This document shows positions 1-43,598 of a DNA stretch of 64,000 nucleotides, in pieces (the first letter of the stretch is position 1; every line of letters begins with the position of its first letter). Location of the stretch: NCBI GenBank assembly GCA_000002435.2, contig CM018792.1; one strand, given 5' to 3'. The position numbers and the translations under genes were made by a program. Origin of the DNA: Giardia intestinalis (lineage: Eukaryota). The notes beneath the pieces were generated by a model, which saw only the letters and a list, made by a program, of their open reading frames with translations, did no database searches and was not told where the DNA came from.

Positions 1-2631
1 CTCAGAGCCTTCATAGCCTTCACTAGTGTTTCCAAGGTTAATACGCTTAACATAGGCGGCGATCAGCCCGCACACACAAGCATCGGAAAAGATATTAGTG
101 AAGTGTGTCATCCAAATCGCCTTTTCAGCAAGAAGTGTCACAATCTTCAAACTCTCCGAGGGAAGAATCGTGTTAACGCCTATGTACTTAATCGTATTTA
201 TTCCCAGTAGAAGCTGTGCAACCACCTTACTAGTCAATAGATGGGTTGATCGAACTGTAGCCTTGTCAACGAGCAAATTGAGGCGGACAGCAATCTGCTC
301 CCGCTCAGCCGTCATGATTCTGGCACGGAACTTATTGTCAGAGCGATATACCCGCTCCTCTGCTCCCTGATCATCTTGGCCATCTAACGTATAGGGATAA
401 GGGTACTCTGCCTCCATAGAGAAGTTATGAATCAGTTCAAACACAGGGTTCTTGACCTCATAAGCAGTAAGCTCGAATACGAATTTCCAGAGATAGCGCT
501 CGAACACGTAGGAGACTTCTGCCGGACGCATCTCGGCAAATAAACGCAGCAAGTCAATAGCGCCGTCGGCTACAGGTGCAAAGCGCATGTAGAGAAGTCC
601 ACATGTCGCCGCTGCAACGATGGATATTACCCTGGCAGAGTCGTCGTTGGCCTTAGCAGATGAGACCTCCAGGAAGCCTAACAGCTGCTTCTGCAACTGT
701 GTCATTATATGCTGGACTTCAAAAACATTCGTAAGGGGAAAGAGGCTGGCATACTGACCAATAATAGCAAACCCGCGTGAGGCACCCCCGAGTAAACTCA
801 CTATCTTCAACATCGATCGTCTCATGACACCATTGGGAGATGTCAGCATGATTAAAGGTAGTTCGCTGTTTAAAAGGGTTGCATATAGCTCGTCCAGCGA
901 AGCACCAGCCAGCCGTGTTGCCAGAACGTCGAAAAGAGAGTCGTACTGGATGGAGACGATAGACTCGAGTAATGTAAAGAAGTACTCTGGTGAACCAGGG
1001 GTGACCTGAATTAATAGAGAAAGCAGGGTGGTGATAAGAGCACCTTGCGTTGTAAGCACCGCGGGCTTCTTAGCTATTCTGCCTACAGAAAGCATATTCA
1101 AATACGATGCATCAATGCTTTGCAAGAGAGACTGCAGCGCTTGCGTATGCTTTCTACTGAGCAACGAGCGCGAATATAGACAGGCTAGGACAGTGCACAA
1201 CATAGATCCTGTTTCGTTCTCCAGCTCATGGACAAAGTCCCTTTCGATTGCTTCTACAATTGCGTCGAGTTCTGAACCGGAGGGCGAATCACAGACTCCT
1301 TCGCAGAAAAGGTAAAGACGAATGTACGGGGAGTGATCCTCTGAAAGAGAAGAGCTGTACACACTTTTGAATGTGTCTATAAAGATGTCCCGTTTGTGGT
1401 GCCTTGAAAAGTCCTGAACCATGACATAGAGAGAGTAGAACACGTTATAATTGCATAGGTCAGCATGAAACTGTTTGAAAAAGGTTGCTACTAAGTCATC
1501 CTTGCATTCTGCGTGGAGAGAGGTAGAGATAGCCAACAAGCACAAAGTCAGTAAGTAAAGGCTCCTATTCAAAGCTTCTTTGTTCGCCACAATCAAGTGA
1601 TAAAGGTCATTAATACCGGAAAACGTCATCTTATTGGGGTAGAACATTGCAAGAGAGAGTAGTGCGTTTTGAGTCTCATGCTGCTGAGAAGGGTCTGACA
1701 GCAGTTTCAGTGCGTGTCCAGTAATAGATAGAATAACCTGTGATAGTGCAGATGAATCCATTTCTGCCTCTGCGAAGAGCGTGGTTAGATCAACAAGCCA
1801 GTTCTCGGTATCTGACTTCGGGATAGAGAAATAGGAGCCAATAATGATATCAAAACGACTATGCAGGGTTCCGTCAGGGTGGCGGCACGCTAGAAGAAGT
1901 ACTAGATTAGCCATTGTTGACTCAAGGGGCCCGGCGATCGACGTGAAGATCTCAGACATACAGTCGTCGTGGCGGGAGTGAACTCTGACAAGATACGCTG
2001 GTATCTCCGCCAAGCCTGGCCATAGCATACGCTCCATCTGTTCCACATAGGAGAGAATTGCACCCCAAATACCCTCGGGTATGGCCCCGCCTAGATACTT
2101 CAGAGAAAGAAGTAGGCTTTGAATTGCCCCCACAAATAACTCTGGATGCTTGCACACGCCATTGAGACGTAAAAGTGTGAGGCTTGTGAGAATAAAGTGC
2201 TTATTACTAGGCCCCAGGTCACGGAAAAGGTCAGGCAGCGCGCGAATGATGCTCAAATAAACGGTCTTGCTTGCTATGAAATCCGAGCTATTAGGATCCT
2301 CGAGTGTTAGCGCATTTAAGGCATTCTCAATAATGGAAAAGAGACCATCTGGATCATACAAAACCTGCACCAACAGTCTATAGTTGAGCATCACGTCGTC
2401 ACAGAGAGACAGAAACACTCCGTGATCGTTGCCAGCCTGAAGCTCTTCCAGCTTAGCAGAAAACAAGGATATCCGCTGGTCTTCTGGGAGATCCGTGTCA
2501 TAGTGCTTACTCCGCGTGGAGTCAATGTTGAAGTGGGCCATGAGAGAGAAGTAATCATGGTATTTGGTGGTCTTGGTCCGAGTGTCGTAGATCGGTGTGA
2601 GCTGGTCCCTCTGCTGATCTCTGCGGGGCAT
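1..2631 (-). CDS. Large hypothetical protein, partial. The N-terminus is in the window and the C-terminus runs off the window start; at least 876 aa.
   Basis: Hand translation of the minus strand from ATG at 2631..2629 (MPRRDQQRDQLTPIYDTRTK...) reads without a stop to position 1, with protein-like composition throughout. It is absent from the ORF track because no stop lies inside the window. The upstream context atttaattaATG is AT-rich and initiator-like. Confidence 0.6.
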   Translation of the reverse strand, partial: MPRRDQQRDQLTPIYDTRTKTTKYHDYFSLMAHFNIDSTRSKHYDTDLPEDQRISLFSAKLEELQAGNDHGVFLSLCDDVMLNYRLLVQVLYDPDGLFSIIENALNALTLEDPNSSDFIASKTVYLSIIRALPDLFRDLGPSNKHFILTSLTLLRLNGVCKHPELFVGAIQSLLLSLKYLGGAIPEGIWGAILSYVEQMERMLWPGLAEIPAYLVRVHSRHDDCMSEIFTSIAGPLESTMANLVLLLACRHPDGTLHSRFDIIIGSYFSIPKSDTENWLVDLTTLFAEAEMDSSALSQVILSITGHALKLLSDPSQQHETQNALLSLAMFYPNKMTFSGINDLYHLIVANKEALNRSLYLLTLCLLAISTSLHAECKDDLVATFFKQFHADLCNYNVFYSLYVMVQDFSRHHKRDIFIDTFKSVYSSSLSEDHSPYIRLYLFCEGVCDSPSGSELDAIVEAIERDFVHELENETGSMLCTVLACLYSRSLLSRKHTQALQSLLQSIDASYLNMLSVGRIAKKPAVLTTQGALITTLLSLLIQVTPGSPEYFFTLLESIVSIQYDSLFDVLATRLAGASLDELYATLLNSELPLIMLTSPNGVMRRSMLKIVSLLGGASRGFAIIGQYASLFPLTNVFEVQHIMTQLQKQLLGFLEVSSAKANDDSARVISIVAAATCGLLYMRFAPVADGAIDLLRLFAEMRPAEVSYVFERYLWKFVFELTAYEVKNPVFELIHNFSMEAEYPYPYTLDGQDDQGAEERVYRSDNKFRARIMTAEREQIAVRLNLLVDKATVRSTHLLTSKVVAQLLLGINTIKYIGVNTILPSESLKIVTLLAEKAIWMTHFTNIFSDACVCGLIAAYVKRINLGNTSEGYEGSE

Positions 2632-10524: not shown

Positions 10525-10996
10525 CGCACTGCCACTTCCCGAGGATTCCTATGCAGTGCCTACTTCCTCGTGGGTAGAGCGGGCATAGAGGCACGGTCTT
10601 GCCGCAGGATCCAGTGGATGCTTGGAGACAGGTGACCCAACGATTTCGTAAAATAGCGCCGCAGAGGCCATGGAGCGAGCAGATGCAATAGGCAATGCGT
10701 TTACTACCGAGACGCCCTGCCCCTGCAGGTGGGCCCAGTGATACAGTGACAGCAATGTACAGGAGTGCACCCCGACCAATCACTCCACAAGAGAGGTGCG
10801 ATCTGAGTCCGGCCCTCACTGGTCCTGTTCCTATGGAAGTCAGAGAGAACTGCGCTATCAGCTGGCCTCCGGTTGGTGTGCTCCTATCTCGTCCTTCTCC
10901 AGTCCAACTGATCAAGAGAGCAAGAGCGGCTGTCTCTCACTGCTCGCGGTCAATGCACAAGTCTGGTGAAAGAGCAGTGGCATACGAACCCGGCTA

Positions 10997-13900
10997 ATGT
11001 TGATAGGATTTCTCCTAGTTTGTGCAACCGTGCTGGCAAAGAACAGCGGGAAGACCGCATGCGTGGCGGCCTCTAACACAGCATGCGCAGCAGCCCTGGA
11101 CACGGCGGGCTGCAAGACCTGCGGCCCCGACGCCCAGACGTGCCTGGACTGCAAGACTCCTGGCGAGAACGTGCAGCTCGATAAAAGAAGCTGCAAGGCC
11201 AACTGCCCGCAGAACTCCTCCCCCAACCAGAACGTCTGCGAGTGCGACCCGGGATTCAGCCTGAACAATGGAAAAGACGCGTGCGAGGCGGTTGCCAACG
11301 TCAACTGCGCAGCAGCCCTGGACACGGCGGGCTGCAAGACCTGCGGCCCCGACGCCCAGACGTGCCTGGACTGCAAGACTCCTGGCGAGAACGTGCAGCT
11401 CGATAAAAGAAGCTGCAAGGCCAACTGCCCGCAGAACTCCTCCCCCAACCAGAACGTCTGCGAGTGCGACCCGGGATTCAGCCTGAACAATGGAAAAGAC
11501 GCGTGCGAGGCGGTTGCCAACGTCAACTGCGCAGCAGCCCTGGACACGGCGGGCTGCAAGACCTGCGGCCCCGACGCCCAGACGTGCCTGGACTGCAAGA
11601 CTCCTGGCGAGAACGTGCAGCTCGATAAAAGAAGCTGCAAGGCCAACTGCCCGCAGAACTCCTCCCCCAACCAGAACGTCTGCGAGTGCGACCCGGGATT
11701 CAGCCTGAACAATGGAAAAGACGCGTGCGAGGCGGTTGCCAACGTCAACTGCGCAGCAGCCCTGGACACGGCGGGCTGCAAGACCTGCGGCCCCGACGCC
11801 CAGACGTGCCTGGACTGCAAGACTCCTGGCGAGAACGTGCAGCTCGATAAAAGAAGCTGCAAGGCCAACTGCCCGCAGAACTCCTCCCCCAACCAGAACG
11901 TCTGCGAGTGCGACCCGGGATTCAGCCTGAACAATGGAAAAGACGCGTGCGAGGCGGTTGCCAACGTCAACTGCGCAGCAGCCCTGGACACGGCGGGCTG
12001 CAAGACCTGCGGCCCCGACGCCCAGACGTGCCTGGACTGCAAGACTCCTGGCGAGAACGTGCAGCTCGATAAAAGAAGCTGCAAGGCCAACTGCCCGCAG
12101 AACTCCTCCCCCAACCAGAACGTCTGCGAGTGCGACCCGGGATTCAGCCTGAACAATGGAAAAGACGCGTGCGAGGCGGTTGCCAACGTCAACTGCGCAG
12201 CAGCCCTGGACACGGCGGGCTGCAAGACCTGCGGCCCCGACGCCCAGACGTGCCTGGACTGCAAGACTCCTGGCGAGAACGTGCAGCTCGATAAAAGAAG
12301 CTGCAAGGCCAACTGCCCGCAGAACTCCTCCCCCAACCAGAACGTCTGCGAGTGCGACCCGGGATTCAGCCTGAACAATGGAAAAGACGCGTGCGAGGCG
12401 GTTGCCAACGTCAACTGCGCAGCAGCCCTGGACACGGCGGGCTGCAAGACCTGCGGCCCCGACGCCCAGACGTGCCTGGACTGCAAGACTCCTGGCGAGA
12501 ACGTGCAGCTCGATAAAAGAAGCTGCAAGGCCAACTGCCCGCAGAACTCCTCCCCCAACCAGAACGTCTGCGAGTGCGACCCGGGATTCAGCCTGAACAA
12601 TGGAAAAGACGCGTGCGAGGCGGTTGCCAACGTCAACTGCGCAGCAGCCCTGGACACGGCGGGCTGCAAGACCTGCGGCCCCGACGCCCAGACGTGCCTG
12701 GACTGCAAGACTCCTGGCGAGAACGTGCAGCTCGATAAAAGAAGCTGCAAGGCCAACTGCCCGCAGAACTCCTCCCCCAACCAGAACGTCTGCGAGTGCG
12801 ACCCGGGATTCAGCCTGAACAATGGAAAAGACGCGTGCGAGGCGGTTGCCAACGTCAACTGCGCAGCAGCCCTGGACACGGCGGGCTGCAAGACCTGCGG
12901 CCCCGACGCCCAGACGTGCCTGGACTGCAAGACTCCTGGCGAGAACGTGCAGCTCGATAAAAGAAGCTGCAAGGCCAACTGCCCGCAGAACTCCTCCCCC
13001 AACCAGAACGTCTGCGAGTGCGACCCGGGATTCAGCCTGAACAATGGAAAAGACGCGTGCGAGGCGGTTGCCAACGTCAACTGCGCAGCAGCCCTGGACA
13101 CGGCGGGCTGCAAGACCTGCGGCCCCGACGCCCAGACGTGCCTGGACTGCAAGACTCCTGGCGAGAACGTGCAGCTCGATAAAAGAAGCTGCAAGGCCAA
13201 CTGCCCGCAGAACTCCTCCCCCAACCAGAACGTCTGCGAGTGCGACCCGGGATTCAGCCTGAACAATGGAAAAGACGCGTGCGAGGCGGTTGCCAACGTC
13301 AACTGCGCAGCAGCCCTGGACACGGCGGGCTGCAAGACCTGCGGCCCCGACGCCCAGACGTGCCTGGACTGCAAGACTCCTGGCGAGAACGTGCAGCTCG
13401 ATAAAAGAAGCTGCAAGGCCAACTGCCCGCAGAACTCCTCCCCCAACCAGAACGTCTGCGAGTGCGACCCGGGATTCAGCCTGAACAATGGAAAAGACGC
13501 GTGCGAGGCGGTTGCCAACGTCAACTGCGCAGCAGCCCTGGACACGGCGGGCTGCAAGACCTGCGGCCCCGACGCCCAGACGTGCCTGGACTGCAAGACT
13601 CCTGGCGAGAACGTGCAGCTCGATAAAAGAAGCTGCAAGGCCAACTGCCCGCAGAACTCCTCCCCCAACCAGAACGTCTGCGAGTGCGACCCGGGATTCA
13701 GCCTGAACAATGGAAAAGACGCGTGCGAGGCGGTTGCCAACGTCAACTGCGCAGCAGCCCTGGACACGGCGGGCTGCAAGACCTGCGGCCCCGACGCCCA
13801 GACGTGCCTGGACTGCAAGACTCCTGGCGAGAACGTGCAGCTCGATAAAAGAAGCTGCAAGGCCAACTGCCCGCAGAACTCCTCCCCCAACCAGAACGTC

Positions 13901-15805
13901 TGCGAGTGCGACCCGGGATTCAGCCTGAACAATGGAAAAGACGCGTGCGAGGCGGTTGCCAACGTCAACTGCGCAGCAGCCCTGGACACGGCGGGCTGCA
14001 AGACCTGCGGCCCCGACGCCCAGACGTGCCTGGACTGCAAGACTCCTGGCGAGAACGTGCAGCTCGATAAAAGAAGCTGCAAGGCCAACTGCCCGCAGAA
14101 CTCCTCCCCCAACCAGAACGTCTGCGAGTGCGACCCGGGATTCAGCCTGAACAATGGAAAAGACGCGTGCGAGGCGGTTGCCAACGTCAACTGCGCAGCA
14201 GCCCTGGACACGGCGGGCTGCAAGACCTGCGGCCCCGACGCCCAGACGTGCCTGGACTGCAAGACTCCTGGCGAGAACGTGCAGCTCGATAAAAGAAGCT
14301 GCAAGGCCAACTGCCCGCAGAACTCCTCCCCCAACCAGAACGTCTGCGAGTGCGACCCGGGATTCAGCCTGAACAATGGAAAAGACGCGTGCGAGGCGGT
14401 TGCCAACGTCAACTGCGCAGCAGCCCTGGACACGGCGGGCTGCAAGACCTGCGGCCCCGACGCCCAGACGTGCCTGGACTGCAAGACTCCTGGCGAGAAC
14501 GTGCAGCTCGATAAAAGAAGCTGCAAGGCCAACTGCCCGCAGAACTCCTCCCCCAACCAGAACGTCTGCGAGTGCGACCCGGGATTCAGCCTGAACAATG
14601 GAAAAGACGCGTGCGAGGCGGTTGCCAACGTCAACTGCGCAGCAGCCCTGGACACGGCGGGCTGCAAGACCTGCGGCCCCGACGCCCAGACGTGCACGGC
14701 CTGTACAGAGGCTTCCAACAATGTACAGATTGACAAGAAGAGCTGCAAGGCCGACTGCCCGTCGAACTCTGCAGCCAACGGCCAGCACGTCTGCGAGTGC
14801 GCCGTTGGGTACCAGCCGACTCCCGGGCAGAACCAGTGCGAGAAGGCCCCTAACACGCAGTGCAATACTCCCAACTGCAAGACCTGTGACAACCCCAAAA
14901 CAGACAACGAAATCTGCACTGAATGTAATGATGGCAACTACCTCACCCCGACAAAGCAGTGCACGCAGAGCTGCGGAGCAATAGGAAGCTACTACAACGG
15001 AGACAAAGTGTGCGAGCCTTGTGATCCTAGCTGTGCTGGGTGCACCACAAAGGGGCCAGCGAAGTGCACAGCTTGTCCTCCCGGGAAAATGCTAAAATAC
15101 ACCAATGATGATCCTAATCAAGGTGGATCCTGCGTAGATGAGTGCAAAGCAGAGATGGACGGGTGTGCAGAGTGTGGAGCGGTAATCGGCGGTACGAAGT
15201 ACTGTTCAAAATGCAAGGAAGATAAGTGGGCACCTCAGAATGGCGTGTGCGCTAATTCAGTAACAAGGAATTCATTCTGCACGAACGCAGCAGGTGGCGT
15301 ATGCACTCAGTGTGCTGCAGATCATTTTCTTCAAGATGGAGGCTGCTATAAACTCGGTAGACAGCCTGGTGTCCAGATATGTGCAGCGGCGGGTCCCAAT
15401 AGCCTGTGTACTACGTGCGTAAATGGACAGAGACCAGATACCAATACTGGAGCCTGTCCTGTGTGTCCAACAGGTTGTGACACATGTACAGGGACATCCT
15501 CGCGGGCGCCCGAATGCCAATCTTGCCTTCTGGGATACTATTTCGATTCTGATAAAAAGCTGTGTGTGAAATGTACCGAGAATAGTAGTGCTATTCAAGG
15601 TGTTAGCAGCTGTGTGAGCTGTAGTCCTCCATCTAATAATCAAGGATCTGTCGTCTGCTACCTCATAAATGATAGCGGTAGCACAAACAAGAGTAGCAGG
15701 CTCTCCACTGGGGCCATCGCTGGCATCTCCGTTGCTGTGGTCGTTGTTGTAGGAGGGCTTGTTGGCTTCTTGTGTTGGTGGTTCCTCTGCCGCGGGAAGG
15801 CGTAG
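10997..15805 (+). CDS. Variant-specific surface protein (VSP), 1602 aa, containing about 16.5 tandem 74-aa Cys-rich repeats
   Basis: The protein has a signal peptide MLIGFLLVCATVLA. About 16 copies of NVNCAAALDTAGCKTCGPDAQTCLDCKTPGENVQLDKRSCKANCPQNSSPNQNVCECDPGFSLNNGKDACEAVA follow. A unique CXXC-rich region containing GGCY comes next. The C-terminus is the TM GAIAGISVAVVVVVGGLVGFLCWWFLC followed by the invariant tail CRGKA*. Confidence 0.9.
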   Translation: MLIGFLLVCATVLAKNSGKTACVAASNTACAAALDTAGCKTCGPDAQTCLDCKTPGENVQLDKRSCKANCPQNSSPNQNVCECDPGFSLNNGKDACEAVANVNCAAALDTAGCKTCGPDAQTCLDCKTPGENVQLDKRSCKANCPQNSSPNQNVCECDPGFSLNNGKDACEAVANVNCAAALDTAGCKTCGPDAQTCLDCKTPGENVQLDKRSCKANCPQNSSPNQNVCECDPGFSLNNGKDACEAVANVNCAAALDTAGCKTCGPDAQTCLDCKTPGENVQLDKRSCKANCPQNSSPNQNVCECDPGFSLNNGKDACEAVANVNCAAALDTAGCKTCGPDAQTCLDCKTPGENVQLDKRSCKANCPQNSSPNQNVCECDPGFSLNNGKDACEAVANVNCAAALDTAGCKTCGPDAQTCLDCKTPGENVQLDKRSCKANCPQNSSPNQNVCECDPGFSLNNGKDACEAVANVNCAAALDTAGCKTCGPDAQTCLDCKTPGENVQLDKRSCKANCPQNSSPNQNVCECDPGFSLNNGKDACEAVANVNCAAALDTAGCKTCGPDAQTCLDCKTPGENVQLDKRSCKANCPQNSSPNQNVCECDPGFSLNNGKDACEAVANVNCAAALDTAGCKTCGPDAQTCLDCKTPGENVQLDKRSCKANCPQNSSPNQNVCECDPGFSLNNGKDACEAVANVNCAAALDTAGCKTCGPDAQTCLDCKTPGENVQLDKRSCKANCPQNSSPNQNVCECDPGFSLNNGKDACEAVANVNCAAALDTAGCKTCGPDAQTCLDCKTPGENVQLDKRSCKANCPQNSSPNQNVCECDPGFSLNNGKDACEAVANVNCAAALDTAGCKTCGPDAQTCLDCKTPGENVQLDKRSCKANCPQNSSPNQNVCECDPGFSLNNGKDACEAVANVNCAAALDTAGCKTCGPDAQTCLDCKTPGENVQLDKRSCKANCPQNSSPNQNVCECDPGFSLNNGKDACEAVANVNCAAALDTAGCKTCGPDAQTCLDCKTPGENVQLDKRSCKANCPQNSSPNQNVCECDPGFSLNNGKDACEAVANVNCAAALDTAGCKTCGPDAQTCLDCKTPGENVQLDKRSCKANCPQNSSPNQNVCECDPGFSLNNGKDACEAVANVNCAAALDTAGCKTCGPDAQTCLDCKTPGENVQLDKRSCKANCPQNSSPNQNVCECDPGFSLNNGKDACEAVANVNCAAALDTAGCKTCGPDAQTCTACTEASNNVQIDKKSCKADCPSNSAANGQHVCECAVGYQPTPGQNQCEKAPNTQCNTPNCKTCDNPKTDNEICTECNDGNYLTPTKQCTQSCGAIGSYYNGDKVCEPCDPSCAGCTTKGPAKCTACPPGKMLKYTNDDPNQGGSCVDECKAEMDGCAECGAVIGGTKYCSKCKEDKWAPQNGVCANSVTRNSFCTNAAGGVCTQCAADHFLQDGGCYKLGRQPGVQICAAAGPNSLCTTCVNGQRPDTNTGACPVCPTGCDTCTGTSSRAPECQSCLLGYYFDSDKKLCVKCTENSSAIQGVSSCVSCSPPSNNQGSVVCYLINDSGSTNKSSRLSTGAIAGISVAVVVVVGGLVGFLCWWFLCRGKA
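11046..14700 (+). repeat. Tandem array of about 16.5 x 222 bp, apparently 100% identical units, inside the VSP coding sequence
   Basis: The identical 72-aa alternate-frame ORFs at 11268, 11490, ... 14598 are spaced exactly 222 nt apart (16 copies). Both antisense frames stay open across the whole array. By-eye comparison of units shows no mismatches. Confidence 0.9.
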
Positions 15806-31501: not shown

Positions 31502-32812
31502 ATGCCGTCCTTCCAGAAAGGAATTATCAGAAACGAAAAATTCACTCTTGACAACTTCCGTTCGCTCATGCCCAAGCCCATACGGTACTATACGACCTTT
31601 AGAAACACTATTTGGACCGTCCTTCAAGAGAGGGGATGGGAGCAAGTGTCCAATGACACAGACGATTGGAACTTTATCTGGGCCTCTGTGGAATGGATTA
31701 GCGAGCGCTTTGATTACAGCCATGTTCCTGACACTAAATTCGTTAATCACTTTCGCAATTTCTACATCCTAACCAGGAAGGATCTCATGGCCAAAAATTT
31801 GAAGGCCGCTCGAAGGAACCTTTTAAAGTACAACTTGCATGAACTTGGTGATCTTTTTGACTTTGTTCCGGCCAATTTTATTCTCCCTATGGAGTTCGGC
31901 ATGATCACCGAGTTCAATCGTAAGCAAACTACCAAGCCCTTATACATTGTCAAGCCGTCCTGCAGGGCTCAGGGCAAAGGAATATTTATATGCGGCTACT
32001 CCGACCTGTACACTTGGTTCAACACGGAATTTCAGGCCAAGGCAAATTCTGGTTCGGACCGTGAGGCACTCTACGTCGTCCAGAAGTATCTCGACAACCC
32101 TCTCGTTGTCTGCGGTCACAAGTTTGATCTCCGCATCTACTGCCTGGTGGAATCATTTCAACCCCTTGTAGCGTGGATCTGCCGTGAGGGATTTGCACGC
32201 TTCAGCCTGCGACCATTCACCGCAAATGCCGACACGCGGGATCTAGAGGTTCACTTGACCAACGTTGCTATTCAGAAGAATTCTACTAACTATGACTCTA
32301 GGGCCGATGGAGCCAAGTGGAGCCTCTTTCAACTGGGTTGCTACTTGGAGACCATCTATGGAAGAGAACAGATAGATATTATGTTTCTGCGCATTGAGCA
32401 GCTCATTATCCGCTCTCTCCAAGCCGTTGCGAATGATATGATCAAGTCACTGTGCATGTTTGAGATCTATGGCTTCGATGTCATGTTAGACAGTAGCCTG
32501 AAGCCCTGGTTGATAGAAATAAATGCAAGCCCATCACTATCTGCAGACACCCGCGAAGACTCCATTGTTAAGCGCAGGATGCTCCACGATGCAATTAGCA
32601 TTCTCGGTGTCGATGTGCCAAAGCCCTCTCCTGACTGCGTTCGATTTGGATGCTGGAATAAGTGTTATAGTGGCAGGGTGCCGAAGTTCACACAGATCGG
32701 TGATCCTGCACGCTTTGAGAAGGAATTGGCGGCCGGATATGTGTCCCCCAAACGGGCTTCACTCGGGTGCGCCAGCGAACGAGTTTGGGGGATGATGGTA
32801 TCTTCCCTGTAG
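31502..32812 (+). CDS. Tubulin-tyrosine-ligase-like (TTLL) family protein
   Basis: TTL-domain landmarks are VNHFRNFYILTRKDLMAKNL, YIVKPSCRAQGKGIFIC, YVVQKYLDNPLVVCGHKFDLRIYCLVESFQPLVAWICREGFARFS, HLTNVAIQK and FEIYGFDVMLDSSLKPWLIEINASPSLS. The ATG lies 3 nt after the previous gene's stop. Confidence 0.85.
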   Translation: MPSFQKGIIRNEKFTLDNFRSLMPKPIRYYTTFRNTIWTVLQERGWEQVSNDTDDWNFIWASVEWISERFDYSHVPDTKFVNHFRNFYILTRKDLMAKNLKAARRNLLKYNLHELGDLFDFVPANFILPMEFGMITEFNRKQTTKPLYIVKPSCRAQGKGIFICGYSDLYTWFNTEFQAKANSGSDREALYVVQKYLDNPLVVCGHKFDLRIYCLVESFQPLVAWICREGFARFSLRPFTANADTRDLEVHLTNVAIQKNSTNYDSRADGAKWSLFQLGCYLETIYGREQIDIMFLRIEQLIIRSLQAVANDMIKSLCMFEIYGFDVMLDSSLKPWLIEINASPSLSADTREDSIVKRRMLHDAISILGVDVPKPSPDCVRFGCWNKCYSGRVPKFTQIGDPARFEKELAAGYVSPKRASLGCASERVWGMMVSSL

Positions 32813-32903: not shown

Positions 32904-35825
32904 ATGATCCTTCTCATTGCAGAGAAGCCCTCAATCGCAGAGATGATCTCGCGGAACTATGGCGAGGGAGCAAAGAAGCTGGATAACGTGTCGTTCCCAA
33001 CGTACACCTTTGTGCAATCATTTGAAGGCTCTAAGGAGACCTTCATGTGTACTTCTGTGGCAGGCCACGTTTTTGAGATAGACTTTGATGCAGAGCTTAA
33101 TGGGTCTTCTGTGCCTCAGGAAAGGCTTTTTGAGCGGGGCCATGTTCATTATTCTTTCACTGACTCGGGGTCGACTGTTGCAAAGCACTTAAAGAGCATT
33201 GGGGGGAAAGCCATGCAGCTAATCCTTTGTTTGGACAACGATCGTGAGGGAGAAAATATTTGCTTTGAGGTTTTGAAGGTCCTCAAACCCACTTTACGAT
33301 CAGATTGTCGGGTCAGACGCGCGCGCTTCTCTGCAGTCACAAAGGCGGAGATACAGAACGCATTTCGTAATCTAGATAAGCCAGACCAGAATCTCTCGGA
33401 TGCAGTCGAAGCCCGTCAGGAACTCGATCTTAAAATAGGGGTGGCATTCACTCGGTTTCAGACTGCACACCTACATGCACAGTTTGCAGATCTTCAATCA
33501 TCTGTTATATCGTATGGACCGTGCCAGACTCCCACGCTGAGTTTCTGTGTTTCTCGCCACGACGAAATCCAGCGGTTCCGGCCGAAGCAGATCTTCAGTT
33601 TGGATGTTTGTGCTTTGATTGGGGACCAACCCCATTCTCTCAGATGGCAGGGGGTTCCGTCCGAGAGTCGGGAGGTCATTGAGGAAAAGCGAACTGGCCT
33701 CTTTGGGAAGAGTGCAACGAAGTGCTTGAAAGTCTTGAGCTTTAAAAGCAGCAAGAGTACTCTTCCTCGCCCCTTGCCAATGAATACCGTTGCGCTACTT
33801 AAGGCAGCTTCAACGGTGCTCGGTCTCTCTCCTAACTCTGCAATGGCGTTGGCAGAGCGCCTATATATTGCTGGATACATTTCTTATCCAAGAACTGAGT
33901 CCACCACATATCCCAGTGGTTACAATCTGCGAGAAATTGTACTTGCGCTTAAAGAATCTTCGTCTACTAGAATTTCACAGTGTGCCCAAAACCTCCTGCC
34001 ATCCTCCAAGAAATCATCTGATGAAAGTGTGAGATACACTAATCCGCGGAGGGGGACAGACCAAGGCGACCATCCTCCCATTATGCCCACTGGGCTAATC
34101 CCTCACGATGTCAGTAGCAACGAGTTGAGTCTCTACAATCTGATAACTAAGCACTTCCTGGCAACAGTTTCTCCTGACGCAGTTTATAGCCATAGCTCGC
34201 TAACTCTTCAATCCGTTGACATGCCCTCCGAAACGTTTCTACTCTCTATTACGGACGTCGTAGACCAGGGTTGGAAGGCTCTATACAGTGCTACGGAGTT
34301 CAGTAGCATGCGGGACAACGATCTGAGCGATGACCTTGCCGACGAGAGCATTTCGCTCAGCAAGGAAACGCTGCAAGCAATCTCTGCAACTGGTGCAACG
34401 CTGACTATAGCCTCGGCTGCCATCAAAGCAGGGATGACGAAGCCACCAGGATATCTCTCTGAATCAGACTTACTTGGCCTGATGGAAAAGCATGGAATTG
34501 GGACCGACGCGAGCATGGCCACCCACATAGGAAATATAGTGACTAGGGCGTATGTCGAGCTCCGCGTTACGGGACGACGGCGCTGCCTGGTGCCGACGTC
34601 GATGGGGATCAGCCTCATCCACGGCTACCAGCTTATTGACGGGGACCTGTCCTCCCCCCAGCTGCGGGCAAGCATTGAAAGGGATGTCACGAGGATTGCT
34701 GAAGGAAAGATTAGGAAGGACGTCCTTGTTAATCAAGTTCTTTCGAAGTTTCTAACCAAGTTCCTACATTTTAAGCAGAACATTGGTAAGCTAGAAGCAC
34801 TTCTAAACGCGAAGTTTACCTCTATTAAGAAGGCCGGCCGGCCATTTATTCTTTGTGGAGAGTGCCATCGCTATACCGATCTCATAGAACAGTACCCGCC
34901 ACGTGTGTACTGTGTAACGTGTGATAAGCTTTACACAATTCCCATGCGTGGAACGTTCATAGAGATACCCAGTCGCAAATGCCCTTACGACGGCTGGCCT
35001 CTGATTCTACACATGGCAGAGGCCACACAAAAGCGAACCTTCTTTTGTCTCCACTGCTACACATTTGGATTGAATAAAGAAGAAGCACTTACGCAACTGC
35101 AAACCGTGGCAGCAGATGGCAGTACTGATATCGAACAGACAAAGGCCATAACTTGTGGGATGTGCCTAAACAGTCTGTGCCAGATGAGCCTTCTTAAAAC
35201 CCAAGTGGGAGCCTGCTGGCACTGCAACGCAGATGGTCGGCCCATGCTAAGTGTGAACAGAGATGGCCCTGATTCCAGTCCAGGGGCAACAAACGATACT
35301 CTAGCCGTTGCACGTTCCCCAGAAGCGCAAGAGCAGACACCAGAGAAGAGCGCAGAGTTAGCATCCGCCCCAGTACAGCCTAAGAAGATATCAATCACTA
35401 TAAAGCCTCAAGCGAAGATCAGTCTTAACATTCCACAAGCAAATAAGTCATCGGGAAGTGCATCAGCTGTGCCTAGTCCAAACAAGGCTAGTAGCTTAGC
35501 CGAACTAGTTGGCGGGTACTTGTGCTTAGATGTGGGGACAGCCCGAAGGCTCCCAGGGATTTACTGCAACCGCTGTAACTTCCAAATTGCGTTTCAAGAG
35601 TGCAAGCTGAGCCTTTCGTCGGATTTTTGTGCGTGTGGTCGTATAAAGCTCAGGGCCACAGACCTTTTGGATAAAAAGTCTGCAAGCAGCGAGGTGTTTG
35701 GGTGTGTGCACTGTAATGATGAATTGTTCCAGACAGTATCTGAGTACAAAGATGGCTCAGGTCGTCATCCCCGTCGCGCAGCTCAGCCGAAGAGGCACGG
35801 ACCAAGGGGTCGCAAACACAGATAG
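32904..35825 (+). CDS. TOP3: DNA topoisomerase III (type IA) with C-terminal Cys4 zinc-ribbon modules
   Basis: The Toprim start is MILLIAEKPSIAE, followed by TSVAGHVFEIDF and the acidic cluster CLDNDREGENI. The catalytic-Tyr region is LYIAGYISYPRTEST, and GIGTDASMATHIGNIV is also present. Four or more C-x2-C...C-x2-C modules sit at the C-terminus. Confidence 0.9.
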   Translation: MILLIAEKPSIAEMISRNYGEGAKKLDNVSFPTYTFVQSFEGSKETFMCTSVAGHVFEIDFDAELNGSSVPQERLFERGHVHYSFTDSGSTVAKHLKSIGGKAMQLILCLDNDREGENICFEVLKVLKPTLRSDCRVRRARFSAVTKAEIQNAFRNLDKPDQNLSDAVEARQELDLKIGVAFTRFQTAHLHAQFADLQSSVISYGPCQTPTLSFCVSRHDEIQRFRPKQIFSLDVCALIGDQPHSLRWQGVPSESREVIEEKRTGLFGKSATKCLKVLSFKSSKSTLPRPLPMNTVALLKAASTVLGLSPNSAMALAERLYIAGYISYPRTESTTYPSGYNLREIVLALKESSSTRISQCAQNLLPSSKKSSDESVRYTNPRRGTDQGDHPPIMPTGLIPHDVSSNELSLYNLITKHFLATVSPDAVYSHSSLTLQSVDMPSETFLLSITDVVDQGWKALYSATEFSSMRDNDLSDDLADESISLSKETLQAISATGATLTIASAAIKAGMTKPPGYLSESDLLGLMEKHGIGTDASMATHIGNIVTRAYVELRVTGRRRCLVPTSMGISLIHGYQLIDGDLSSPQLRASIERDVTRIAEGKIRKDVLVNQVLSKFLTKFLHFKQNIGKLEALLNAKFTSIKKAGRPFILCGECHRYTDLIEQYPPRVYCVTCDKLYTIPMRGTFIEIPSRKCPYDGWPLILHMAEATQKRTFFCLHCYTFGLNKEEALTQLQTVAADGSTDIEQTKAITCGMCLNSLCQMSLLKTQVGACWHCNADGRPMLSVNRDGPDSSPGATNDTLAVARSPEAQEQTPEKSAELASAPVQPKKISITIKPQAKISLNIPQANKSSGSASAVPSPNKASSLAELVGGYLCLDVGTARRLPGIYCNRCNFQIAFQECKLSLSSDFCACGRIKLRATDLLDKKSASSEVFGCVHCNDELFQTVSEYKDGSGRHPRRAAQPKRHGPRGRKHR

Positions 35826-36183
35826 CCATCAAGTGCTTGCTATTATGTAAACTACTTCCTACTCCATTAAATATTTAGACGCGCAGTTCTGGCTATGGGA
35901 CCGAAACTTTTGAAGAGCGAGTCAGCTATGAGTTTATGGATGAAAACGCAGTTCAATCAGATCGTGCGGTATATAAGTATAAGATACATAACCGTAGAGT
36001 GCTAATCACGACCCACCGAGTAGTTGATAATTCATCAATCACTGGCAGGGCAAATCACTCACCAGAACCAGCTAGTTCAATTTGTGCTTCGGACTTTAGA
36101 TCTGCTGATCTAGACTTTATTCCACTAACGGATACTTTTAGATCAGTTGTTCACCACTTGGTGGTACTCTCTGTGACGTCACC

Positions 36184-37488
36184 TTGTGCGTGATGCAGTG
36201 CCCCAGTTCCGCCTGTTGCTGCTGCCAATGGAGGCCCGCCATAACGTTCTACGCAGTCTTTCTGATCAGCCTTGCGCTCCAACTGGCGACAGAGGAGTGC
36301 ACAACCGTCTCTGGTGATCAGCCCGACACTTGCAAGGCCTGTAGCGCCGTCATCAACGGCAAGAAGTACTGCTCCCAGTGCAACGGCGGTGGGTCTCAAT
36401 CTGCCCCAACGGACGGAGTGTGCTCAGCAGACAACAACGAATGCCCCTAAAAGAACAACGGAGTATGTACACAGTGCGCTCATGAGTCCTTCATGTACAA
36501 GAGCGGATGCTACAAGGATAGCCAGGCACCTGGCAACACGATGTGTGAAACAGCAACTGATGGAGTGTGCACACTAACTAAGGCTGGATACTTCGTGCCG
36601 CCGGGCGCAGACGCCTCTCACCAGTCGGTCATACCATGTGGAGACGAAGAGGAAATAACAGTTAAAGATGGCAAGAAGTACAAGGGTGTGCCGCACTGCA
36701 CTCGGTGTAATACGCCTGACGCAGCAACCGATGCTAACGCCAAGGCTGCCACGTGCACGGCTTGTGAAGACGGGTACTTTGTAGATAGTAGTAAAGGGTG
36801 CACTGCCTGTGATGGTAGTTGTAAGACGTGTGAGGCCACAAGAGATACTAAGCGCAAGTCTTGTACAGAGGAAACACACTTCCTTGGGGCAGCTTCTGGT
36901 GGAGAAGGCAAGTGCATATCGTGCGGAGATGCATCTGACAGTACATGGAAGGGCGTCGATGGGTGCCTGAAGTGCACTACATCGGGAAAAAACACCCCTG
37001 CCACATGCACTGAGTGCCAAGAAGGCAAGTACCTGAAAGGCGGCGATCCCACTAGTTGTATTCTCAGAAACGCATGCACCGGAACACACTTCCCCAACGA
37101 CAATGCAGAGAATAAGAAGAAGTGTCTTCCTTGTGGTGATCATGTTAACGGTGGTATAGAGCACTGCTTGGAATGCGCACTGATCGAAGGTCAAGTTGAA
37201 GGGGTCCTTGTTACGTGCACTAAGTGTAGTACTAGAAAGAAGGTGAGCCCCGGGAGGAAGTCATGTGTGGATGGCTGTCCCAGCAACTCCACTGATGATA
37301 ACTCTGTCTGTGTGTGCAACGATGGGTACAGCCCTGACAGCAGTGGGGCCTCCTGTGTGTCCTCTGGCAGTAATAGGAGCGGGCTCTCCACGGGGGCCAT
37401 CGCGGGGATCTCCGTGGCTGTCATCGTCGTCGTGGGGGGTCTCATAGGGTTCCTCTGCTGGTGGTTCATATGTAGAGGGAAGGCGTGA
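36184..37488 (+). pseudogene. VSP gene interrupted by a single in-frame TAA (36448-36450). The upstream ORF carries the signal peptide and the downstream ORF the CXXC ectodomain, TM and CRGKA tail.
   Basis: ORFs 36184..36450 and 36493..37488 are in the same frame. The read-through sequence is ...CSADNNECP*KNNGVCTQCAHESFMYKSGCYK..., with VSP CXXC spacing continuous across the stop. The C-terminus is GAIAGISVAVIVVVGGLIGFLCWWFICRGKA*. Confidence 0.6.
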
Positions 37489-37502
37489 CTTGGGTAGTGA
37501 AT
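37488..37502 (+). promoter_or_regulatory. VSP-type extended poly(A) signal ACTTGGGTAGTGAAT, overlapping the TGA stop
   Basis: The same ACTYRGGTAGTRAAY-like motif as after the first VSP. Confidence 0.5.
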
Positions 37503-37745
37503 TCATTGTCGACAAGCCTGCCGGTGGCGCCTGGATATCATTAGTTTGTAACTGTCTAAGTTAATCATCCATTCGCCCTTAGTGTCGTTGTGTGCATAGA
37601 AGTATACATTGTACGAACTATCTTACACTCTGGGAGCGTATGGGAGCAAGTACGCAGAAGGAGAACCGGTACTATAGGCACAATCGTCCATTGGCTCTAG
37701 ATTCTGCTGAAAAAGAACAAATTCCTTTTGTGCAATTGTGAGTTA

Positions 37746-40700
37746 ATGTGCAGTCGGTGGGAGCAGCGTCTCTTCACCAAAGAAGTAGCTGATGCTCTCC
37801 TGATAGCTAAAGATGCAGTTGAGTGCCCGGAAGCTGAACTTACACCCATCTCCAAGCATTTCAATCTTGGTGGATTAGACTATGCTATGTGCTTTATCAC
37901 TAGACATAAAGGCAGTCATCAGCAAGAGGAATTGAATAGGCACTGCTTTGGCTCTACCAGTGCCCGACTAGAGAACTGTCCTAGAATGAACTCGCATGAT
38001 ATCTCCGTCCTCACCCACTTTGGTCTCCCATGCTCGTTTCTTCTCTACGCTTGTACGGACCGTTCTCTTGGGTGTCCACTGAAAACCTCTATTCCCCCAA
38101 AAGATACGGCAAAGGCAACAAAGCCCACAGAGTCACTTCTTCAATTGCTTGAACTCCTTGTCTATTCGGCTGCCACACAGGTACACCTGGATCAGATATA
38201 TCCTTTTCTAATTCAAGTCCCGATTTATCAACAGGGGCACTCTATCGCCATGTTTGCATTGAGGGGTTGGTATCGATCTTGCCATATGTCCGGAATCATT
38301 AATGGCATGGGTATATCTTCCAGCTTTGGTGTGGGAGAGATGAAAAGCTATGACTGCCTTCAGAGTTCTCACGAAAGCACCGAAACACATAGCGCTGACT
38401 CCCTCCACTCTGTGCACGCTCTTGCTTTCCTTCGAGATACCAAAGATGTTATGCGTGGTCTGCCTAGAAGCTCAACCATAGGGCCTGTTCCTCTGCTGTC
38501 GTGTTATTATACAGATATACTTGCTAGTGCCCCTAACTCTTTATCTAGAACCCCCAGTCTCCCGTACAATGGGCACCTAGTTCGACGAATGGATCTCTTG
38601 CAGAGGACACTATCTTTTTCTGATCTAAAAGACTTCGTCACCGACGCTCTAGGACGAAGCAAGTCTCAGCGACATATTGCAGCAAAGAATTCTGCCAAGA
38701 CAGCCCTTGTTTCTCTCTCGAAATCGCTGAAGATGAATACGGACGAAATTCTGTGGCCATTGACAGATATCTTGCCGACTGACGTTAACAAGAACGTCTA
38801 CCTTACTAACATCTACCAAAACACCTATAAGCAACCTTTTAAATGCTACCTTAACGTGATGCTCTCACGCATCATTCCATTAGACTTTCCATTGACAGCA
38901 CACGTGCCGCGAATGTACCTGAACAGCATCGCCACAGGCATCCCTAGCAACTTTGGATCCGTGTGGAAGATTTTTGCCAGATGTCCTGCAGAGGCCTTCG
39001 TTCGAGGAAAGGCCATTGAATCAGTGGTTCTGCACTGCTATGCAACCGATTTTGATCAAGATTTCCTTACAACATATGCAAACATTCTATGCAGAGTACG
39101 CTCCAATCTTGAAAGCGGGGTGTCTGTATCTCTCCTTGGAAAAAAGACCCGCAGAGCTAACATAGACACCTTTAGGAGGAAGCATGTTAATGACCCTGCC
39201 ACCAATTTCAATAGTACCGACTGCAAAGGATCTCTGTCAAAACAGACTGTGCTCTCCACCAATGGCCATAAGGATCCATACACCGTATATGTGAAAAAGC
39301 TAACTGAGTACAGACAGGCTCGTGCTCTGGAGCACAAACGTAATACCATAGTTATAGGCGACTCCACTTTACCGGTTCTTCTTCCTGCTGGGATACCGTT
39401 GCACAATTCTCTGCACATTTTATCTCTTGCAATACACTTTGGTCTAGCAGCTATCGAGAGCTTCGGCGCTGCGAGTGCAGATATCGATGATGCACCTGTC
39501 TGGGCATTTGCTCCCTTCTTTGCAGAGCTATCTCAGACAGGCGATCTCCAAAAGGCCGTGCCCGGGTGTGCAGCTGTGGCAAATCTGTTGTCTGTAACGG
39601 AGAAGTATCTGCAATTTAGCTATGGACATACTGCACCGAGAAGCATGGAGTCTGTATCTGTAGATTGTTCTGTCTATATATCTCATAATACCACTCTGGC
39701 AGCTCTGGCTCTGGCAGAAGAACAGTCGGCTACACCGCAAGGAACAACCCAGACAGGGTCGGGCGAAATATTAGCGAGCCACAAAGTCCTAAATACCAGC
39801 ATAGACTATATTCTTGGATGTCACCAGGGAGCCAACACTACTGGGGATAATCACCACTGTGGACGCCGCCGCACACCCCTCAAAAAGCCTCCATGCTACT
39901 CGTCTCCATTGTCCCAGCAATTCTACTCCCTACACAGCGAACTCTATTGTCCTGAAAACTGTCTTCTTTGCAGAGTTGCCGGGGTGGCCTCTGGAATTTC
40001 TGAGGCCCAGGGAGTTTTAGTACTAGTCAAGACGCTGATTTCACGGCTCATGGCCATGTTTCACAGTGGAGACTCAATACCCTATGTTGGCTATACATTT
40101 GAGATAACTCGGCACGCTACCATATACCAGGTACTGGCAAAGGCAAACCAATGTCTTAGGCTCTATCAGGCATCTACTAGCAACAATAGCAATAGCAGCT
40201 CCATGAGCTTTGATGATAGAGGAAAAGCATTAACAAAGTTCGGGTTAAATAAGGTCACAATGAGCCTCCCTTCGCCAACGTTCCATGATCTTAAAAGCGA
40301 GCTCTCTAAGGAGCCACGGAATACAATGCTGTATTCCTTAATTTGTAAGAACTTTCTTTACTTTTTGCTGCAAGCAGGCGCTCAGCTATTGGAGAGAACA
40401 ATTAGCGAGGAAGCATTAGTCAAGGGGGTCTTGGAACACATGCTGGCTCGTGGCGACTATGCTGGATATGCACCAAAGAACCTTGTCAGTGCATATCCAT
40501 CCATGTTCAAGGAGCCTTCTTACACAGACTATCCTCCAATACTCACCACTGAGGCGTTAGGCATCATTCCAATAGGTAGAACAACAGGAATCCTAACATT
40601 TGTTCCGAAGACGAGCGCTGCCTTGACTGAGGATGCCTCGTATCTCTGCCTCATTTACCCTTACCCCAATAGCTTTGTGGAGCAATGTGCACGGACCGTA

Positions 40701-41495: not shown

Positions 41496-43598
41496 ATGTT
41501 TCTAGATTCTACTGCTCCACCTGCTCAGCTAGGCTTATTCCAATCAGCCACATGTAGATCTCCTGGAAGTATGAAGGTATGTCGCAGATATACGATTCCA
41601 CTGAATGCAGTGCTTGACCGCAATCTTTTATTCAAGCTTTTGGAAAAGCTACGCGATAACAACTCTAGCTTCATTATACATGTAGTAGAATGGACCGAAA
41701 CTAAAGAAGAGTTGTTGGTCTATACAGATGGCGCTACGGACACGCCTCTAGAGACAATCTATTGTGAGGCGAGGTTTATAGACAGTGCTCTACCAGAACA
41801 TGTCGTCTGGGAGTTTATGTATAGCATGCTTTCCGCAGTAAAAGAAGCTCAAGCAATAAGAAACTATATTCTAGCAGATTCTGTACAGTTGCGGAGCCAG
41901 GTTCCCGTCCTGAGCTTGAAGTCGTTCTACATGAATAACGCAGGTTTTTGCAGGTTGGATGTTTTTGTGTATTGTTTTAACTATCTATTTGATAGGACTG
42001 TTCTTTTTCAAAGTCTGTCTAATCAGCCTTTGATACTCAAAAGTGTCGCCGTGGCCGACCTCTGGCCATACGAGGACTGCTCTAATAACTGTATGTCATG
42101 CACTGCTGTCTCTCCGCCACTCAGTTTCTACGTGGAGCCCGAACATAAGGACACTTGCCCGACAAGTAAAGCTGACTGGCTTAAGATAGAGACGTACATG
42201 ATTGGCCGTATCGTGCTTCTACTATGCGATTTGAGCCCAGTCATGTTAGCGACTACAGACGAAGATGACGAATATTACAATGCGAATCACCTCTATTTTC
42301 GGGGATATTCCATAGAACTAGCGCTTATTGGCTATCGTATGCTTTACACACAGGGCAGTATTCGCTTCTTGGTGTCTGATCTATTGGAGCACGATTTCAT
42401 GATTATTCTCCGATATATCCTATGCCCGCCGAGTCAGGATGCTACTCACCACCGGATAGGCAGTCAAAACGCAACCCCACTTATACTAGGGGCAAGAAGC
42501 AGGTTTCCTCTACTCATCGATGAGTTGGTGGAGCGATATGCTGGAATGCAGGACGCTCGCGGAAAAACTGCCTTAATGTACGCGGCGGAAAATAACTCCT
42601 TAGCTTATATTGAATGCTTGAAAGCTAAGGAGATGCGGATGCAACTGAGGACAATTGGCACCGAGAGCGATGGAGAAACTGCACTGATGATTGCTGTAGC
42701 TAACGGAAACTGCAATGCAGCAGCGCTATTAATGGATGAAGCTGGCCTAGCTCGCCGCGATGGGACAACCGCGCTTATGATGGCGTGCGATCAAATAGGA
42801 CTCCAGGATGATGCAGTGATAGATGAGCTAATAGCCAGAGAGCATGGGATGCGTAGCTGCTCAGGGTACACAGCGCTTATGCACGCAGCCAAAGCTGGAA
42901 ATGTGCACCTAGTAAGGAAAACTATGCCATATGAGGCGCGAGCTCAAGCAAATGACGGAACTACCGCGCTACTTCTGGCTGCCTCATTAGGATACGCGTC
43001 AATATGCTCCTTACTCATCGAGCAGGAAGGAATGTACAGTGATAACGAAGGGTGTACCGCCCTCATAATCGCATCAAAGCAAGGTCTAGAGAGAGCTGTC
43101 TTGGCAACCATACAGCTTGCGGGAGAATCCAACCACATGGGCCGCACAGCGCTAATGCATGCGGTAAAGTACAACAGACAGAGAATTGTATCAGTCCTGT
43201 CCACATGCGAAAAAGAAATGGGTAGGACAGATAAGTATGGGGCATCAGCACTAAGCATGGCTGCTGAGAGTGGAAATGCACAAGTTCTTGGCATTCTCTT
43301 GAAATCTCCGATAGCGGACAAAGAGGTATCTCTAGTGGACAAAAATGGCTGGACCGCCCTCATCCATGCTGCAAGGAACAACCATGTGGATTGCGTGGTT
43401 CAGCTTGTCAAGACACAAGCAGGGATGAAGGATTTTAAGGGCTACTCGGCGATTCTGTATGCTATAAAATGGGGATATGTGGAGGTCGTCAAAAGACTAT
43501 TAGAATCCGAGGGGTATCTATTGAAGGAGCAGCCTGGAAAATCGCACCTCCAATCTATTGACACTTCCCCAGATGTGGCAAACCTACTCACTAGCTGA
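41496..43598 (+). CDS. Ankyrin-repeat protein (Protein 21.1-like) with a roughly 330-aa N-terminal domain of unknown function
   Basis: At least 9 ankyrin units lie in the C-terminal half (GKTALMYAAENNSLAYIECL, GETALMIAVANGNCNAAALL, GTTALMMACDQ..., GYTALMHAAKAGNVHLV...). The ATG lies 3 nt after the upstream stop. Confidence 0.8.
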   Translation: MFLDSTAPPAQLGLFQSATCRSPGSMKVCRRYTIPLNAVLDRNLLFKLLEKLRDNNSSFIIHVVEWTETKEELLVYTDGATDTPLETIYCEARFIDSALPEHVVWEFMYSMLSAVKEAQAIRNYILADSVQLRSQVPVLSLKSFYMNNAGFCRLDVFVYCFNYLFDRTVLFQSLSNQPLILKSVAVADLWPYEDCSNNCMSCTAVSPPLSFYVEPEHKDTCPTSKADWLKIETYMIGRIVLLLCDLSPVMLATTDEDDEYYNANHLYFRGYSIELALIGYRMLYTQGSIRFLVSDLLEHDFMIILRYILCPPSQDATHHRIGSQNATPLILGARSRFPLLIDELVERYAGMQDARGKTALMYAAENNSLAYIECLKAKEMRMQLRTIGTESDGETALMIAVANGNCNAAALLMDEAGLARRDGTTALMMACDQIGLQDDAVIDELIAREHGMRSCSGYTALMHAAKAGNVHLVRKTMPYEARAQANDGTTALLLAASLGYASICSLLIEQEGMYSDNEGCTALIIASKQGLERAVLATIQLAGESNHMGRTALMHAVKYNRQRIVSVLSTCEKEMGRTDKYGASALSMAAESGNAQVLGILLKSPIADKEVSLVDKNGWTALIHAARNNHVDCVVQLVKTQAGMKDFKGYSAILYAIKWGYVEVVKRLLESEGYLLKEQPGKSHLQSIDTSPDVANLLTS

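Follow-up and report, generated by a model that had tools for sequence, protein, structure and literature searches.

Start-codon, nonsense and cysteine changes in the annotated VSP pseudogene GL50803_0050171 of Giardia intestinalis WB

Introduction

On chromosome 4 of Giardia intestinalis WB C6 (NC_051859.1; assemblage AI), two open reading frames with the features of a VSP follow each other in the same frame with a single TAA between them. This raises the question of whether they are the two parts of one broken VSP gene and, if so, what broke it and in which order. We analyzed the window, which is the whole stretch of 64,000 nucleotides around this locus, numbered from its first letter. The VSP copy at 36193-37488 is located between the gene encoding DNA topoisomerase III (Topo III; 32904-35825, XP_001709794.1 / KAE8303857.1) and a gene for a 1248-aa protein without known function. 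Topo III, as well as TTL (31502-32812, KAE8303856.1) and an ankyrin protein (41496-43598, KAE8303859.1), were identified by exact sequence match.

The identical 1296-nt sequence, including the TAA and reading ...gaatgcccctaaaagaac..., is GL50803_0050171, a RefSeq pseudogene (bioRxiv 10.1101/2022.03.07.483299, Table S7), and its entry gives pVSP type I (Cys-rich), ORF=N and inner_stop_codons=Y (Rodriguez-Walker et al., 10.1101/2022.03.07.483299, Table S7). The catalogue entry and the copy in the window share locus, sequence, internal TAA and polyadenylation motif, with no sequence difference between them, and the original prediction of a VSP pseudogene, made from the letters of the DNA, thus agrees with public annotation. 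The entry is silent, however, on the change of the initiator ATG to ACG, on the intact orthologue in assemblage AII and on the conversion tract that we describe below. A literature search returned no main-text mention of the locus identifiers, and 50171 is absent from the supplement of Adam 2010. In the re-sequencing of WB by PacBio, with bases corrected with 100x Illumina, VSPs without a proper signal peptide were moved to the psiVSPs, and the resulting WB tally was 133 VSPs and 208 psiVSPs (Xu et al. 2020, PMC7000408).

GL50803_0050171 is therefore an ordinary VSP pseudogene that is already known. Our additions are minor and their significance extends little beyond annotation hygiene: a start-codon lesion common to AI and AII, a likely CAA ancestor of the stop codon, a conversion tract, and a link between the old and the new identifiers of the locus. 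Jointly, they allow the steps in the decay of one VSP copy to be ordered and dated.

Results

One VSP frame interrupted by a single stop codon

A single reading frame runs through 36184-37488, and both the sequence and its translation show the TAA as its sole interruption (Table 1). The ORF list divides this frame into 36184..36450, opened by a TTG under the bacterial table, and 36493..37488, which opens with ATG and encodes 331 aa. The TTG at 36184, from which the upstream part had originally been read, was picked only because bacterial start codons were allowed; in a eukaryote, the start is the ATG at 36193, and the VSP frame proper comprises 431 codons (36193-37488). Joined across the stop, the protein can be aligned over its full length with an intact orthologue of 440 aa from assemblage AII (80% identity, 100% coverage), and for this reason the two ORFs are not chance neighbours. 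The translation and this alignment bear out the original prediction that two ORFs of the same frame are split by nothing but the TAA. Pfam PF03302 (Giardia VSP) is found in the C-terminal part with E=2.6e-30 and in the N-terminal part with E=1.3e-4, the latter below the gathering score.

The stop had been placed between the signal peptide and the ectodomain, and here the original prediction has to be corrected, as codon 86 lies about 53 codons inside the ectodomain, past the first two CXXC motifs (CKAC and CSQC). The part downstream of the stop does lack a signal peptide, as had been proposed: its maximum Kyte-Doolittle value over 9 residues is 0.7, compared to 2.9 for a real VSP signal peptide.

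Much of what characterizes a VSP is still present. The joined frame holds 48 Cys and 14 CXXC motifs, as expected for the ectodomain of a Cys-rich VSP, and the C-terminus reads ...GFLCWWFICRGKA followed by TGA, that is, the conserved VSP transmembrane segment and CRGKA tail. The polyadenylation signal GACTTGGGTAGTGAATTCAT is given for GL50803_0050171 at +2..21 (10.1101/2022.03.07.483299, Table S6). A functional VSP furthermore has an unbroken ORF from the start to CRGKA and the sequence PyAATGTT containing the start codon; GL50803_0050171 has a TAA at 36448-36450 in the former and TAACGTT in place of the latter. Through the internal TAA and the mutated start, it falls within the pVSP / psiVSP class, which comprises VSP-like sequences that lack either a complete ORF or a proper signal peptide or start. 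In addition, a Cys-to-Arg change at 36853-36855 destroys one CXXC motif (DTKRKSC as opposed to DTKCKSC). There was no Rfam match in 35500-38000, no Pfam family match in antisense ORFs over the VSP gene, and no meaningful repeat in 35800-37800.

Table 1. Positions of the VSP pseudogene and its features in the window
Feature	Position	Strand	Evidence
Whole VSP pseudogene GL50803_0050171 (1296 nt = 430 sense codons, internal TAA and terminal TGA)	36193..37488	+	Table S7 identity, Pfam VSP, AII alignment
5' flank of the VSP cassette	36178..36243	+	P15 homology ends at ~36178; initiator Met of paralogues opposite codon 18 rather than codon 1
Degenerate initiator element TAACGTT (consensus PyAATGTT)	36242..36248	+	ACG at 36244-36246 versus ATG in three intact WB paralogues
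Signal-peptide remnant (T)FYAVFLISLALQLA	36244..36288	+	Aligns with MFYAFLLIGLALQLA of GL50803_00101380; hydrophobicity profile
175-nt tract identical to expressed VSP GL50803_00101380 (NC_051858.1), putative conversion tract	36269..36443	+	DNA alignment
In-frame TAA, codon 86, next base A (TAA-A)	36448..36450	+	Sequence, translation, aligned codons
331-aa post-stop ORF, no signal peptide	36493..37488	+	Exactly XP_001709798.1; vsp19 properties; hydrophobicity
CGC (Arg) instead of TGC (Cys)	36853..36855	+	AII orthologue and paralogues have TGC
Intact transmembrane segment AIAGISVAVIVVVGGLIGFLCWWFI and CRGKA tail; TGA at 37486-37488	37396..37485	+	Translation, Pfam VSP C-terminal match
VSP-type extended polyadenylation signal GACTTGGGTAGTGAATTCAT, core AGTGAA at 37496-37501	37487..37506	+	Sequence; Table S6

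The canonical start codon is ACG in assemblages AI and AII

The extension read from the upstream in-frame ATG at 36193 is the atypical sequence MQCPSSACCCCQWRPAI. In the hydrophobicity profile, the hydrophobic core of the signal peptide occupies codons 17-32, behind 16-17 atypical residues counted from this only available ATG. Thr18 of the pseudogene frame is the position of the initiator Met in all paralogues whose signal peptide is of the same type (MFYA(V/F)LLIGL..., MFYTFLWIGL...). The DNA alignment has the same outcome: the three intact WB genes read ATGTTCTACGC at the start, whereas ACGTTCTACGC, with ACG at the position of the canonical start, is found in both the pseudogene and the AII orthologue. 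According to the literature, the initiator element (Inr) is present in 135/136 intact WB VSPs. The other VSP in the window has the canonical TAATGTT (10995-11001), and CAATGTT is found at a VSP of P15 (assemblage E).

As the paralogue Met aligns with Thr18 and TAACGTT replaces TAATGTT, we suggest that MQCPSSACCCCQWRPAI is most likely the translated 5' flank of the gene and was formerly non-coding. Downstream of Topo III, the identity between WB and assemblage E (P15) is 58-78% up to ~36178 and 28-48% from there on, the latter being taken to be the background of a forced alignment between unrelated sequences. From the alignment, and from the near-universal presence of the Inr, we infer that the change from ATG to ACG was a loss of function. 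The YAATGTT heptamer is not enriched in the 64-kb window (15 observed versus 14.65 expected), so the argument for start loss is one of alignment and not of motif counts. Since ACG is found in both AI and AII, the start lesion predates the AI/AII split, and the VSP gene was probably impaired by it before the nonsense codon arose.

N-terminal extensions are also seen in the public VSP models P0005, P0008, P0022 and P0031, in which an upstream in-frame ATG was picked over the ATG of the initiator element. In P0005, 52 extra residues precede the MFGRLLLL that starts at CAATGTT (L006 8155-8161).

Origin of the stop codon

The first 400 nt of three intact WB VSPs (10.1101/2022.03.07.483299, Table S1) were aligned with positions 36244-36643 of the window. 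At the column of the stop codon, where the WB pseudogene has TAA, the intact WB genes GL50803_00101380 and GL50803_00115742 both have CAA and GL50803_0041472 has ACT. The comparison with an orthologue that the original prediction had called for was possible in assemblage AII, where the syntenic copy is open and reads CGG (Arg) at this position. The residue aligned there varies among 120 homologues (A 20, Q 16, V 11, T 10, and others). Within the closest NNEC-x-K...CTQC contexts, including ECP-Q-K, it is most often Gln. Because two intact WB paralogues have CAA, and because Gln prevails in the closest contexts, the best reconstruction is that the TAA derived from CAA (Gln) via one C-to-T transition. 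The CAA in GL50803_00101380 and GL50803_00115742 thereby also lends support to the one-nucleotide nonsense change put forward at the outset. Against a CAA ancestor, the paralogue that is locally closest downstream of the stop, GL50803_0041472, reads ACT, and Lys is found in another relative; a change from AAA to TAA is a possible alternative origin.

Mosaic structure of the pseudogene

The closest relative of the pseudogene varies along the protein. For the first 45 residues it is the AII orthologue, and for residues 31-135 it is GL50803_00101380; a short patch past the stop is closest to GL50803_0041472, and residues 271-345 are closest to the AII paralogue family P0136/P0137. Over the 400 nt aligned, the pseudogene is 94.6% identical to GL50803_00101380 and only 80.7% to its own syntenic AII orthologue, and the 175-nt tract in Table 1 is without a difference. 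GL50803_00101380 (XP_001704180.2, 635 aa, Inr CAATGTT) has the same type of signal peptide as the pseudogene, but differs from it in having an ATG start and CAA at the stop column, in being longer with an unrelated 3' half, and in its location on another chromosome (NC_051858.1). The mosaic blocks, together with the identical tract, indicate gene conversion after the AI/AII split. As a mosaic, the copy would still take part in gene conversion within the VSP family, whether by giving or by receiving sequence.

Over residues 271-345, P0136 and P0137 do not differ from the WB pseudogene, and are here closer to it than the syntenic AII orthologue is.

Among Logan short-read contigs, those coming from Topo III end at 36157-36355 and those coming from the 1248-aa gene begin at 37450-37473, and the interior of the VSP is thus found on separate contigs. 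A shared conversion tract may explain many of the breaks in short-read contigs near the 5'-end of the gene.

The syntenic orthologue and the site in other assemblages

The best homologue of the joined protein (P0001; 440 aa, 80% identical, 100% query coverage) is encoded on an ENA metagenome scaffold (locus L001), on which the gene order is as in WB: kinase, 160-aa ORF, TTL, Topo III, VSP, 1248-aa gene and ankyrin. The 90% cluster of P0001 includes ESU36112.1 (443 aa) from isolate DH of assemblage AII. The AII and WB copies are alike in their site between Topo III and the 1248-aa gene, in the N-terminal extension and in the ACG start. They are unlike in that the frame of the AII copy is open and its CXXC cysteine is kept. 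The flanks are about 97-98% identical between AII and WB, with values of 95-100% in the DNA alignment, whereas blocks of 92-98% and of 52-82% identity alternate in the interior of the gene. The 52-82% blocks suggest that the two copies have been overwritten differently.

A further observation on the AII orthologue is that TAC (Tyr) is found where the first Cys of the ectodomain (TGC) is expected, at about 6106-6108 of L001, corresponding to 36298-36300 of the window. With an ACG start and a Tyr for a Cys, its functionality is doubtful despite its annotation as a VSP (ESU36112.1). On the other hand, the AII copy retains an ORF of 440 codons when read from the upstream ATG, and it is annotated as a VSP. 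This ATG might be usable, and the AII orthologue would then be a working VSP that is initiated at a non-canonical ATG and lacks an Inr, although we consider this unlikely.

We considered the dN/dS between WB and AII (0.34-0.35) as a test of constraint and rejected it. The seemingly conserved blocks have a dS of ~0.12, compared to a divergence of ~2% in the flanks, and as the differences were mostly imported by conversion from functional genes, the ratio is uninformative.

The P15 protein P0005 was also considered as a candidate orthologue from assemblage E, and was rejected as it sits at another locus. In P15, the site downstream of Topo III is occupied by the 3'-end of another gene for a Cys-rich membrane protein (...GFLCWWFIFRGRRIGSSSSVTSLIHSKSA), which lies on the opposite strand (L009 15065-15511 (-), ACVC01000535.1), so that this intergenic position hosts different Cys-rich genes in different assemblages. 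The contigs of assemblage B (GS) stop inside Topo III.

Three VSP-like models from assemblage AII, P0002, P0136 (ESU38150.1) and P0137, which belong to another locus, start with MQNAIEEC... and have no signal peptide. Two of them end in ...GLVGFLCQGKT with the transmembrane segment and tail shortened, and the three are likely to be AII pseudogenes too.

The post-stop ORF in older gene models

XP_001709798.1, which was named "VSP" in the 2007 annotation, is exactly the 331-aa ORF downstream of the stop, and none of the 2020 KAE proteins corresponds to this ORF. The gene vsp19 / GL50803_112331 is described as a "complete" gene on chromosome 4 without an Inr, encoding 331 aa and 34.2 kDa with 34 Cys and 10 CXXC (Adam et al. 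2010, PMC2996952, Additional file 1). Length, mass and both counts are identical for the ORF at 36493-37485, which consequently matches vsp19 on every tabulated property; the link is made through the chromosome (4), the length, the mass, the number of Cys and the number of CXXC. What was tallied as a complete clade III vsp without an Inr (Adam et al. 2010, PMC2996952) really covers the 3' three-quarters of a gene that is longer and has been disrupted. The 2007 model of a 331-aa "VSP" without a signal peptide is thus shown to be wrong, and the 2020 re-annotation as a pseudogene to be right, and why.

Discussion

We consider it very probable that 36193-37488 is a non-functional VSP copy with at least three lesions and a mosaic structure left by conversion, annotated as the pseudogene GL50803_0050171. 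The order of events that we propose begins with the start codon, which would have changed within TAATGTT to ACG (TAACGTT) before the AI/AII split. The TAA at codon 86 is absent in the AII orthologue and would most parsimoniously be a CAA (Gln) altered by a C-to-T change. The Cys-to-Arg change is a third lesion, by which one CXXC is broken. From the upstream ATG, translation would yield only 85 residues before the stop, and the 331-aa ORF downstream has neither a signal peptide nor an initiator element at its disposal, and we infer that no secreted and membrane-anchored VSP can be produced. The transmembrane segment, the CRGKA tail and the polyadenylation signal may be intact either as they have not yet eroded or as they have been refreshed by conversion.

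The locus could also be read as a VSP gene in which only one allele has the TAA, the other copies in the two diploid nuclei having a sense codon, e.g., CAA. We find this quite unlikely. Overall heterozygosity in WB is reportedly very low, which counts against it, the TAA is found in both assemblies, which were made 13 years apart from different data, and even a sense allele would keep the ACG start and the Cys-to-Arg change. What could speak for such an allele is that Giardia is tetraploid with higher allelic variation around VSP genes, and that a consensus base was altered only where 50% or more of the reads supported the alternative (Xu et al. 2020, PMC7000408). A scan of metagenomes for the sequence pattern with NNN at the stop codon gave 0 matches, and exact-product look-ups of the 331-aa ORF, of an 85-aa ORF upstream of the pseudogene (see below) and of P0003 returned nothing.

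A functional product from the disrupted locus, be it the 331-aa ORF, a secreted N-terminal peptide of 85 residues or a full-length protein obtained by read-through of the TAA, is in our view highly improbable. The leaders of Giardia mRNAs are very short, and the mRNAs begin at the initiator, which argues against a functional 331-aa ORF, and so does the lack of a signal peptide and of an Inr at its ATG, as well as the loss of a conserved CXXC cysteine. In eukaryotes generally, termination is strong at a TAA with A as the next base, and this is the context here; read-through is further contradicted by the lack of conservation of the stop, which is CGG in AII and CAA or ACT in the paralogues, and by the lack of an Rfam match in 35500-38000. 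It is true that the 331-aa ORF retains the transmembrane segment and the CRGKA tail, followed by an intact polyadenylation signal, and that it was annotated in 2007 and stands as the "complete" vsp19 in Adam 2010 (PMC2996952), but both later re-annotations class VSPs without a signal peptide as pseudogenes.

That the TAA reflects a mistake of sequencing or assembly in an intact gene, an alternative raised along with the original prediction, is very unlikely and indeed scarcely credible, since two independent assemblies agree on the TAA (the 2007 Sanger-based XP_001709798.1 is exactly the post-stop ORF, and the 2020 PacBio assembly retains the TAA after 100x Illumina correction), the protein collection searched contains no uninterrupted WB protein of 431 aa (best match 80% identical), and nothing specific favors an error, given that the PacBio errors that truncated some genes before correction were homopolymer indels and not substitutions (PMC7000408).

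For a non-functional VSP copy with a conversion mosaic, a sequence reservoir would appear to be the only plausible residual role. Copies of the pVSP type have been proposed in cited work to serve as a reservoir for gene conversion, and the pVSP arrays of Giardia muris and the VSG pseudogenes of Trypanosoma brucei are, as here, disabled members that share recombination tracts with expressed ones. The WB pseudogene is unlike those reservoirs in being solitary among housekeeping genes and not part of a subtelomeric array. We think it unlikely that the dead copy was an active conversion partner that donated the 175-nt tract to the live GL50803_00101380. If this were true, solitary pVSPs among housekeeping genes would be a working reservoir from which the repertoire of expressed VSPs in assemblage A is diversified, and the tract would be a concrete case of exchange between a pseudogene and a live antigen gene, bearing on the reservoir role proposed for roughly 200 pVSPs. 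VSP switching in Giardia is regarded as epigenetic (PMC2996952).

Two other features of the window deserve mention. Between Topo III and the pseudogene there is an 85-aa ORF (35936-36193, +), which is called as a gene in Logan and ENA contigs and whose TGA overlaps the ATG at 36193. The ORF at 35936-36193 has no Pfam match, there are a few substitutions in it between AI and AII, and the P15 sequence aligns with it only with indels; on the grounds of the missing Pfam match, the AI/AII substitutions and the indels relative to P15, we suggest that it is probably non-coding.

The other VSP of the window (10997-15805, +) encodes 1602 aa, and has the canonical TAATGTT initiator and the CRGKA tail. 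In it, a 222-bp unit is repeated in tandem 16.3 times without any difference between the copies, in an array at 11084-14695. On chromosome 4, vsp13 has been described with TR222 x 8 and 725 aa (Adam 2010, PMC2996952). Our guess is that the VSP at 10997-15805 is vsp13, in which case the copy number of the 222-bp repeat may have collapsed in the older assembly. The repeat presumably also accounts for the long antisense ORFs at 10912-14937 and 11015-14788.
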